Shown one piece after another: positions 7,157-54,515 of a stretch of DNA of 64,000 nucleotides. Numbering within the stretch: the stretch's first letter is position 1; the number at the start of each line of letters is the position of its first letter. Below the pieces are notes generated by a model. That model was not told the DNA's origin. It worked only from the letters and a program-made list of their open reading frames with translations, and did not search any database. Both the position numbers and the translations under genes were made by a program. Origin of the DNA: Octopus vulgaris (taxonomy: Eukaryota); assembly GCA_951406725.2 (NCBI GenBank), contig OX597833.1, forward strand, positions 54,312,001 through 54,376,000, given 5' to 3'.

Positions 7157-7207
7157 AGCTTCCTGATGATTTCATTTGAATGAAACAGTTCTAGTCCTGT
7201 AGAAGCT
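7157..7207 (+). ncRNA. Type I hammerhead ribozyme motif
   Basis: Stem I agcttc/gaagct (6 bp), CTGATGA 7163-7169, weak stem II ttca/tgaa, GAAA 7182-7185, stem III acag/ctgt, GTA cleavage triplet; lies in a ~145-bp element between TA tracts. Confidence 0.75.
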
Positions 7208-20679: not shown

Positions 20680-20842
20680 GGTCCAGGAGTGGCTGTGTGG
20701 TAAGTAGCTTGCTAACTAACCACATGGTTCCGGGTTCAGTCCCACTGCGTGGCATCTTGGGCAAGTGTCTTCTGCTATAGCCCCGGGCCGACCAAAGCCT
20801 TGTGAGTGGATTTGGTAGACAGAAACTGAAAGAAGCCTGTCG

Positions 20843-20879
<37 letters not shown>

Positions 20880-21086
20880 TTGTGTGTTTGTGTTTGTCCC
20901 CCTGGCATTGCTTGACAACTGATGCTGGTGTGTTCACGTCCCCGTCACTTAGCAGTTCAGCAAAAGAGACCGATAGAATAAGTACTGGGCTTACAAAGAA
21001 TAAGTCCTGGGGTCGATTTGCTCGACTAAAGGCGGTGCTCCAGCATGGCCGCAGTCAAATGACTGAAACAAGTAAAAGAGAAAAAG
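20680..21086 (+). mobile_element. SINE family A, full length
   Basis: Complete head, internal microsatellite and gtaaaaga tail. Confidence 0.93.
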
Positions 21087-21167
21087 AGAGAGAAAAAAAG
21101 ATATACATATACATATATACACATGAATAAATACATATGAAGATATATATATATATATATATATATA

Positions 21168-21561
21168 GCGGAGATGTACTCGCATAGCAAGTAATTTGAT
21201 CTGAGATCGTATGCTGAAACGAAAACAATTGCAGCGTGGAAGGTGTTTATAAGCCATTTAAGAAACACACAAAAGCCGTTCGATTCATTTCAACATTTAA
21301 GTTTAATTTGTCAAAATATTTTCGTCGCTAAAATCCGCGACCTGTTCACTGACAAAAATCCGTGCTGTCAAAATATTTTTGTCGCTAAAATCCCGACCTG
21401 TTCACTGACAAAAATCCGTGCTGCAGCACGGATTTTTGTCAGTGAACAGGTCGCGGATTTTAGTGACGAAAATATTTTGACAAATTAAACTTAAATGTTG
21501 AAGTGAATCGAACGGCTTTTGTGTGTTTCTTAAATGGCTTATAAACACCTTTCACGCTGCA

Positions 21562-21566
<5 letters not shown>
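21168..21566. mobile_element. TA-flanked fold-back element with three hammerhead-like motifs (G3-C8 core)
   Basis: Inverted arms 21225-21423 / 21424-21566, with an internal ~56-bp duplication in the left arm; motif tttgtca GTGAACA g gtcgc...gcgac GAA aatatt t tgacaaa. Confidence 0.8.
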
Positions 21567-21596
<30 letters not shown>

Positions 21597-21973
21597 GAAT
21601 AAATACATATAAATATATACATATATATGTATGTATATATATACCAGTATAAATATATTTTTGAATTATGATAAATAAATTTGCTCACTCAACATAGACC
21701 ATTCAGATCAGTGACATCTCATGCCAGATGTACAAAATCTTTCGGACATTAGAATACCATTGCGTCGTTGTTCTGTCAAAGAATTTCGGCTTCATCTAGA
21801 AGCTGCTTCTTTTGGTAACTGATTTATATAGTCTTGCTGGCTGGCTGGCTAAAAAGAACCTCCCCTTCTTCTCCAAACCAACTACCGCCACCACCACCAA
21901 CACCACCACCACCACCACATCCATCTCCATCTTTCCCGTACGTTAAACAACAGCACCAACAACAACAACAACA

Positions 21974-54478: not shown

Positions 54479-54515
54479 TTAAAATTTTCGTTGCGTCTTG
54501 CAACCTTTTCAATAG
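54479..54515 (-). ncRNA. Minimal hammerhead-like motif with U3-A8 core
   Basis: cta TTGAAAA g gttgc-aagac-gcaac GAA aatt T taa. Confidence 0.6.

Follow-up and report, generated by a model that had tools for sequence, protein, structure and literature searches.

Minimal type I hammerheads (min-HHRs) have been described in the terminal repeats (pLTRs) of metazoan Penelope-like elements (PLEs; Cervera and de la Pena 2014, PMC4209133). Measured against excerpts of that survey, a motif in the genome of Octopus vulgaris resembles them in its type I topology, the extra base between positions 9 and 10.1, the G10.1-C11.1 pair, the palindromic stem III, and its location in a pLTR; its family likewise comprises thousands of dispersed, truncated copies, with pairs on opposite strands. 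By contrast, the tertiary pair in the core of the octopus motif is G3-C8, whereas the excerpts contain only C3-G8 and U3-A8, and its extra base is G instead of H; its stem I has 7 bp.

A further known system that comes close is the Poseidon element PAc of the green anole (excerpts of Frangieh et al. 2024, PMC11167929). In both elements, the hammerhead is situated at the junction of pLTR and ORF, targets are AT-rich, two internal start sites of reverse transcription in the ORF define an optional tail, and uncut RNA appears to serve as template. However, the natural core of PAc is C3-G8, and G3-C8 is found there as a laboratory rescue mutant. The ORF of PAc starts in stem II, whereas that of the octopus element starts 56 nt after the cut site, and the tail has 30-40 nt in PAc but 55 nt in the octopus element.

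Natural covariation of the tertiary 3:8 pair, which the octopus motif shares, is known from hammerheads with U3-A8 (excerpts of Perreault et al. 2011, PMC3088659, and of PMC4209133). While U3-A8 is two transitions away from C3-G8, G3-C8 is two transversions away and reverses the order of purine and pyrimidine. In a literature search, G3-C8 was found only as an engineered mutant, a provisional result that does not extend to one supplement of PMC4209133 or to the survey by Lunse et al. 2017 on variants of PLE hammerheads, to which PMC6765202 (seen as excerpts) refers; nothing on the 3:8 pair was found in excerpts of PMC11014351. A natural, lineage-wide G3-C8 would add a third Watson-Crick state to the tertiary 3:8 pair of hammerheads, and families of this kind would escape searches that rely on CUGANGA or UUGANAA.

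As judged from its sequence, the octopus motif is real and derived, and throughout its family it represents a G3-C8 version of a ribozyme type that is already known, in an element type that is known as well. The reading favored here, with a probability of roughly 0.72, is that the palindrome in which it occurs consists of short 5' pieces of a PLE joined head to head, and that these pieces carry a terminal-repeat minimal hammerhead with a family-wide G3-C8 pair, which is likely a compensated swap and is predicted to cut weakly as a dimer, probably aided by protein.

Architecture of the locus and identity of the element

The window, which is the whole 64-kb stretch of DNA that was analyzed, contains, as identified from its sequence, an insertion of a PLE that has thousands of copies; the insertion is 5'-truncated and arranged head to head (Table 1). 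The inverted-repeat arms (21225-21367 and 21424-21566) have 143 nt each and are 98% identical, with 3 differences, and the 56-nt spacer between them is made up of a broken third hammerhead copy. A sequence-only reading had placed the palindrome at 21225..21566; on the left, the element reaches to about 21169, beyond the arm, by a 55-nt tail that is present on one arm only.

Table 1. Coordinates of the features at the palindromic insertion
Feature	Position	Strand	Details or basis
(TA)n target repeat, left flank	21143..21168	.	Sequence
PLE ORF, first 30 codons	21168..21257	-	ATG at 21257-21255
Left arm with tail	21169..21367	-	5' piece of PLE transcript that begins about +5 after the inferred start, spans the hammerhead, and enters the ORF
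Optional tail	21169-21224	-	Stretch between two common 3' ends
Intact G3-C8 minimal type I hammerhead motif	21307..21356	-	G3 21349, C8 21344, extra G 21342, G12 21323
5' duplication, 59 nt	21365-21423	-	Contains the broken tandem copy; meets the left arm at a CAG common to both
Broken tandem copy	21366..21412	-	G3 21405, C8 21400, G12A at 21380, 1-nt deletion in the 5' strand of stem II
Inversion axis	21422..21425	.	Self-complementary TGCA of the element itself, +3 to +6 after the inferred start
Right arm	21424..21566	+	Equivalent 5' piece without tail; stops at ORF codon 11
Intact G3-C8 hammerhead motif	21435..21484	+	G3 21442, C8 21447, extra G 21449, G12 21468
PLE ORF, first 11 codons	21534..21566	+	Comparison with long copies
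(TA)n target repeat, right flank	21567..21592	.	Sequence

The left arm with its tail is 98% identical over 198 nt to the end of a near-intact copy (L116), and its sequence runs on into the ORF in L322/L402, L320/L403, and L327. Since the arm continues directly into the ORF (MAYKH...) in L402, L403, and L327, the arms in the window end at ORF codons 11 and 30. The (TA)n repeat adjoins also many other genomic copies of the family. Outside of it lies a 17-nt direct repeat (21123-21139 and 21595-21611), whose order is unlike that of a target-site duplication. A SINE-like repeat of about 400 nt is present at 20686-21080, 90 nt to the left of the element, with 11 more matches in the window that are 81-93% alike.

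The ORF was found by walking upstream from long copies of the family. It ends with a CxxxCxxC linker followed by a GIY-YIG domain, which was detected with Pfam at residues 915-1005 of 1025 (25.4 bits; cut-off, 22.6). A linker of this type before GIY-YIG is described for the Neptune and Nematis clades in excerpts of PMC8557442, a likeness that stands beside a protein tree without reference PLEs. Indirect signs of a reverse transcriptase are the YVDD motif in the translation, the RVT_1 domain in 4 of the 31 aligned homologs, and the designation of homologs as "Reverse transcriptase domain"; a Pfam search of the ORF protein itself returned no match to reverse transcriptases, and a PDB sequence search of the ORF returned 0 matches.

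Near-intact copies with frames of 839 and 1025 aa carry G3-C8. One copy (L403) forms a unit of pLTR, ORF, and pLTR, and L402 also has a partial tandem arrangement. The motif is located in the pLTR; the stop of the ORF lies about 1 kb before it, and its cut site precedes the ATG of the next ORF by 56 nt. Inverted, 5'-truncated copies and an optional 3' tail (55 nt), which are traits of PLEs according to excerpts of PMC8557442, are present in the family, and the palindromic form of insertion is seen at all sizes up to several kb. The motif is almost certainly a variant of the PLE hammerhead.

Long inverted arms, thousands of copies, and a short tandem repeat of the motif would also suit a MITE-like DNA transposon or a non-LTR retrozyme, the latter being, in excerpts of its description (bioRxiv 10.64898/2026.07.22.740005), a short non-coding repeat related to PLE pLTRs with a type I hammerhead. 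Either identity can be virtually dismissed, because the 5' truncations from which the arms point outward are variable, numerous copies stand alone, long copies lead into the PLE ORF, and both the near-intact G3-C8 copies and the L403 unit contradict it. Unlike the retrozymes, which have at least two consecutive complete units, the locus is an inverted, truncated insertion without an array of complete units, and its tandem partner, a piece of 59 nt, has a broken core.

State and origin of the 3:8 pair

A descriptor for type I hammerheads with any Watson-Crick 3:8 pair matched both strands of the whole 64-kb window twice, and both matches are G3-C8. Each consists of a 7-bp stem I, GUGAACA, one extra G, a 5-bp stem II, GAA, a palindromic AAUAUU, and U17; the predicted cuts are between 21314 and 21313 (- motif) and between 21477 and 21478 (+ motif). 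The motifs thus have the core of metazoan PLE minimal hammerheads (NUGANNA with a Watson-Crick 3:8 pair), GAAA, and NUH (here UUU), together with the G10.1-C11.1 pair and the short palindromic stem III; the literal CUGANGA is not matched, and the 3:8 pair is retained in swapped form. The extra nucleotide that separates position 9 from position 10.1 is G in 9 of 10 PLE-linked motifs, whereas the published consensus is H.

The three G3-C8 hammerheads that the sequence-only reading had placed in the palindrome are borne out by the window-wide descriptor as two intact copies and a broken one. The 3' strand of stem II, gcgac in that reading, is GTGAC in the + copy, with one G.U pair. In the third copy, G12A had been recognized, but the deletion in stem II and the shortening of stem I, whose 3' strand is reduced to TGACA, had been passed over. 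The three copies in the window go back to duplication of one repeat and therefore do not support the swap independently. No hammerhead was matched by Rfam in the window; the same holds for 12 PLE loci with canonical minimal motifs among them, and since the canonical motifs were likewise missed, the blank in the window is uninformative. Two further hammerhead-like motifs in the window were read by eye, one at 7157-7207 (+ strand) with a C3-G8 core and one at 54479-54515 (- strand) with a U3-A8 core and an extra G.

Whether G3 and C8 are fixed among the genomic copies, a question raised by the sequence-only reading, can be answered at the level of the family: the family state is G3-C8. A query with the arm yielded 1056 first-look candidates in the 2.8-Gb genome. 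A 23-letter family pattern that covers stem I, core, and stem II, with any base allowed at positions 3 and 8, is matched 4559 times, as opposed to 0 times for its reversed control; 4130 of the matches are G3-C8. Both positions are altered in 13 matches, with 0 cases of C3-G8 and 6 of A3-T8 (a double transition); single variants number 283 at position 8 and, by subtraction, 133 at position 3. The 3' part, searched for as a 31-letter pattern, is matched 8784 times in the genome, and 55 of 59 copies that were chosen by the 3' pattern regardless of the motif, with known duplicates removed, are G3-C8. In four runs of assembled contigs (three deep ones, filed under three organism codes, and one smaller), no difference is listed for the core positions at a threshold of 5%, and loop II and the flanks vary.

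G3-C8 is already seen in old copies, whose DNA identity to young ones is about 83% and about 75%, and C8 is present in L126 and L330, which have diverged most among the long copies examined. In the subfamily with a GGTTT loop, 75 G3-C8, 8 G3.G8, and 0 C3-G8 were counted by eye among the matches listed (100 of 313). The position-8 variants among the matches listed (100 of 283, by eye) comprise 46 G8, 38 T8, and 16 A8. The surplus of the mismatched G3.G8 is an excess of a transversion. G8 occurs in all four types of loop II (40 copies: 11, 20, 6, and 3). In pairs of the same subfamily, it is present on both arms in 3 of 3 cases, whereas copies with T8 or A8 have a C8 mate in 6 of 6, a contrast that is weak because there are also two T8/T8 pairs. 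The over-representation of G3.G8, sometimes on both arms, means that mismatched cores may have transposed; its interpretation as a fossil step from C3-G8 via G3.G8 to G3-C8 is unsupported, and in the subfamily that looks oldest, G3.G8 is not ancestral.

Two arrangements of copies stand out. One palindromic insertion is present with identical junctions at seven places on contig C1 (L353/L354, L272, L273, L275, L276, L278, and L397) and apparently rode inside another repeat or a segmental duplication. L335 (C28:4994870-4997936) has at least 7 tandem copies of the arm of about 147 nt with a spacing of about 170-190 nt, resembling a retrozyme array.

The regions that follow PLE ORFs bear on the origin of the swap. 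A descriptor with positions 3 and 8 open detected 10 motifs in 29 such regions (26 metagenome loci, the G3-C8 family, its sister family, and one distant PLE), with 0 matches on the antisense strand and 0 in 100 shuffles. In these PLE-linked motifs, the 3:8 pair is Watson-Crick in 10 of 10 cases, namely six C-G, three U-A, and one G-C, the last being the family in the window. The strict descriptor found nothing in 19 of the 29 regions; a looser one detected C3-G8 motifs in two of these 19 (L150 and L153), and many of the others are short contigs.

The sister family in the same genome, with 52% protein identity, has a homologous motif with C3-G8, A9C, and covarying stems. In a protein tree of 25 rows, which has only a midpoint root and leaves deeper forks open, the G3-C8 family is the sister (100/99) of this C3-G8/A9C family and is placed among C3-G8 lineages. 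On this topology, G3-C8 is derived from C3-G8, and it is likely a compensated swap of the ancestral pair. The natural compensatory variant proposed in the sequence-only reading is thus upheld by the family-wide state, the placement in the tree, and the Watson-Crick pairs in all PLE-linked motifs. The swap is a single evolutionary event, and its activity is something we infer.

The sister PLE (L132-L143, e.g., C5:74026998-74030474) is very young, with frames of up to about 1312 aa, copies that are 98-100% alike, and the core CUGAUGC. U3-A8 occurs together with A9C in a metagenome locus (L144). A search for sister elements by GIY-YIG family returned mostly a distant PLE group; a distant PLE in the same genome has a U3-A8 minimal hammerhead without the extra base in 5 of 30 loci (L083, L085, L086, L089, and L094).

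Constraint on the motif was assessed by changes at the level of subfamilies, defined by a second allele at 15% or more. None of the positions of core and stems is affected (0 of 42), as opposed to 4 of the 8 positions of loop II and 11 of 51 when loop and flanks are taken together (Fisher p = 0.0003 and 0.0009, respectively, versus core and stems), and these p-values overstate independence because the sites are tied by subfamily history. Stem III is invariant among subfamilies. It is very unlikely that the hammerhead was dead and drifting and that two chance changes made G3-C8 in a master element, which was then amplified. Such a history would be compatible with the single origin of G3-C8 and with a G3.G8 minority in all four loop types, and since all copies descend from one origin, fixation among copies does not amount to selection. 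However, the subfamily changes avoid core and stems but not loop II, G3-C8 is already present in old copies, and every family-level departure from C3-G8 is Watson-Crick.

Templates of the copies and joining of the arms

The 5' ends were located in 101 copies found with the 3' pattern, which are those among the matches listed on contig C1 (100) and one mate. In 55 copies (48 of 89 when 12 duplicated rows are left out), the end lies at -6 to +9 of the A in TC-A-GATG, and in 4 it lies clearly further upstream. The predicted cut (+59) coincides with the 5' end in 0 of 101 copies, and 1 copy ends within 3 nt of it; 5' ends are not enriched at the cut site. A separate, non-random set of 90 distinct junctions includes 31 that continue upstream and 59 that stop at the inferred start. 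In 39 of the 59 stopping copies, a G replaces the genomic C just before the start, and the sequence further upstream is unrelated. Among solo copies, the extra G was read by eye in 16 of 22; in inverted pairs, it may derive from the opposite arm.

Untemplated G at the 5' ends of full-length L1 and SVA elements has been read as copied caps (excerpts of PMC4859970). Because the 5' ends of the octopus copies cluster about 16 nt before the motif, often with an extra G, and none lies at the cut, it is likely that capped, uncut RNA was copied, and we infer that the templates were mostly uncut RNA. The start points of the copies lend genomic backing to the finding, made in vitro, that the template is uncut RNA. 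Immediately upstream of the hot spot of 5' ends, at L116:7400-7425 and in further long copies, the sequence resembles a branch point, a pyrimidine tract, and a 3' splice AG. In Penelope of D. virilis, an intron ends at helix I (excerpts of PMC4209133), and splicing at the acceptor-like site may be the source of the extra G.

According to the favored reading, the transcript would begin about 16 nt ahead of stem I, with the A of TC-A-GATG. Reverse transcription would begin at two sites inside the first ~90 nt of the ORF, as in the anole PLE, and would proceed to the capped 5' end, giving copies of about 145-200 nt with a G that derives from the cap; the palindrome would result when two of these products are joined at TGCA. 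In the three deep runs, loose ends are found at 21169 and 21223. The TGCA at the axis is likely the microhomology used for the head-to-head join; the 5' end lies at +3 in 11 of the 101 copies, mostly members of inverted pairs.

A total of 54 head-to-head pairs was found, and with 4 untyped pairs and 7 duplicates dropped, 43 typed pairs are left. Their loop II types are alike in 36 pairs and differ in 7, in 5 of these by several bases, which means that at least some palindromes were built from two templates. Mixed loop II types occur in L016, L025, L030, L209, and L260.

Predicted folding, activity, and role of the motif

Folding of stems I and II is predicted to be most favorable in the intact - copy (z = -3.4), followed by the + copy (z = -2.7) and the broken copy (z = -1.5). 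In the minimum-energy prediction, G3 forms a wobble pair with U17 that extends helix I, and the open-core fold represents only 2.7% of the ensemble. When two intact motifs are cofolded, the double hammerhead has -27.2 kcal/mol versus -29.4 kcal/mol for two monomers; a stable dimer is not supported by secondary-structure energies alone.

The sequence-only reading had seen in the tandem copies the geometry for dimeric cleavage, so that the locus itself would make a tandem RNA that cleaves itself as a double hammerhead. The intact core and the cleavage strand of the broken copy can be drawn as a type III-like hammerhead with a 6-bp stem III, but this fold is disfavored (-10.9 versus -13.7 kcal/mol) and makes up about 0.2% of the ensemble. 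With G12 lost and stem II broken in the upstream tandem copy, at most one cuttable site is left at the locus, and read-through RNA of either strand is predicted to fold into a 143-bp hairpin (about -257 to -266 kcal/mol) in which all motifs are buried. Moreover, all three pieces begin about 5 nt downstream of the inferred start, which means that the upstream sequence is missing from the locus. The proposal fares poorly on each of these counts, and self-cleavage of a tandem RNA from the window locus is highly improbable. The window copy is probably an inert by-product, and a function at this particular place is just as hard to credit.

For the family as a whole, there is reason to expect some activity. 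The general acid in the hammerhead is the 2'-OH of nucleotide 8 (excerpts of PMC6155905), and a C3G/G8C double mutant partly rescues a PLE hammerhead whose cleavage requires the PLE protein (excerpts of PMC11167929); the chemistry therefore allows the swap. In a tertiary-stabilized hammerhead, G3-C8 was reported to be more active with G17 than with C17 ("data not shown"), and a base-pair trap has been proposed for C3-G17 and, from unpublished data, for G3-C17 (excerpts of PMC3884650). By analogy, the effect of G17 versus C17 points to a trap like G3.U17. Weak cutting is predicted for the motif, in dimers of the RNA and probably assisted by the protein of the element; measurable cleavage that depends on the 3:8 pair appears somewhat more probable than its absence.

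Insertion in vitro is unaffected in hammerhead mutants (excerpts of PMC11167929). Together with the G3.U17 trap, the extra G where the published consensus has H, the excess of G3.G8, and the A9C of the sister family, the insertion competence of these mutants means that conservation could reflect a non-catalytic role. It is unlikely, however, that the motif no longer cuts usefully and that its fold and stem III are kept as a signal for RNA dimerization or for binding by a dimeric PLE protein. Uncut templates, the invariance of stem III among subfamilies, the excess of G3.G8 copies, and the 5 of 43 typed pairs in which an A-type loop II is combined with a clearly distinct type would all agree with such a signal, as would the anole PLE, whose protein is a predicted dimer and whose hammerhead mutants still insert (excerpts of PMC11167929). 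But a signal of this kind has no obvious need for a Watson-Crick 3:8 pair, G12, or U17, which are nevertheless conserved across lineages, and the 36 of 43 pairs that are alike in loop type are explained equally well by one RNA copied twice.

In the favored reading of a weakly cutting hammerhead, cutting, if any, would strip the cap from the mRNA of the element and not prepare the template. The position of the motif between putative cap and AUG bears on the open question of the role of PLE hammerheads. It is conceivable, although doubtful, that the PLE hammerhead is a dimer-triggered off-switch between cap and start codon, in which stem III would pair the RNAs and the attenuation by G3-C8 and G3.U17 would spare capped dimers for joint reverse transcription. 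If true, such a switch would account for the head-to-head insertions from two templates and for the expansion to about 9000 arms.
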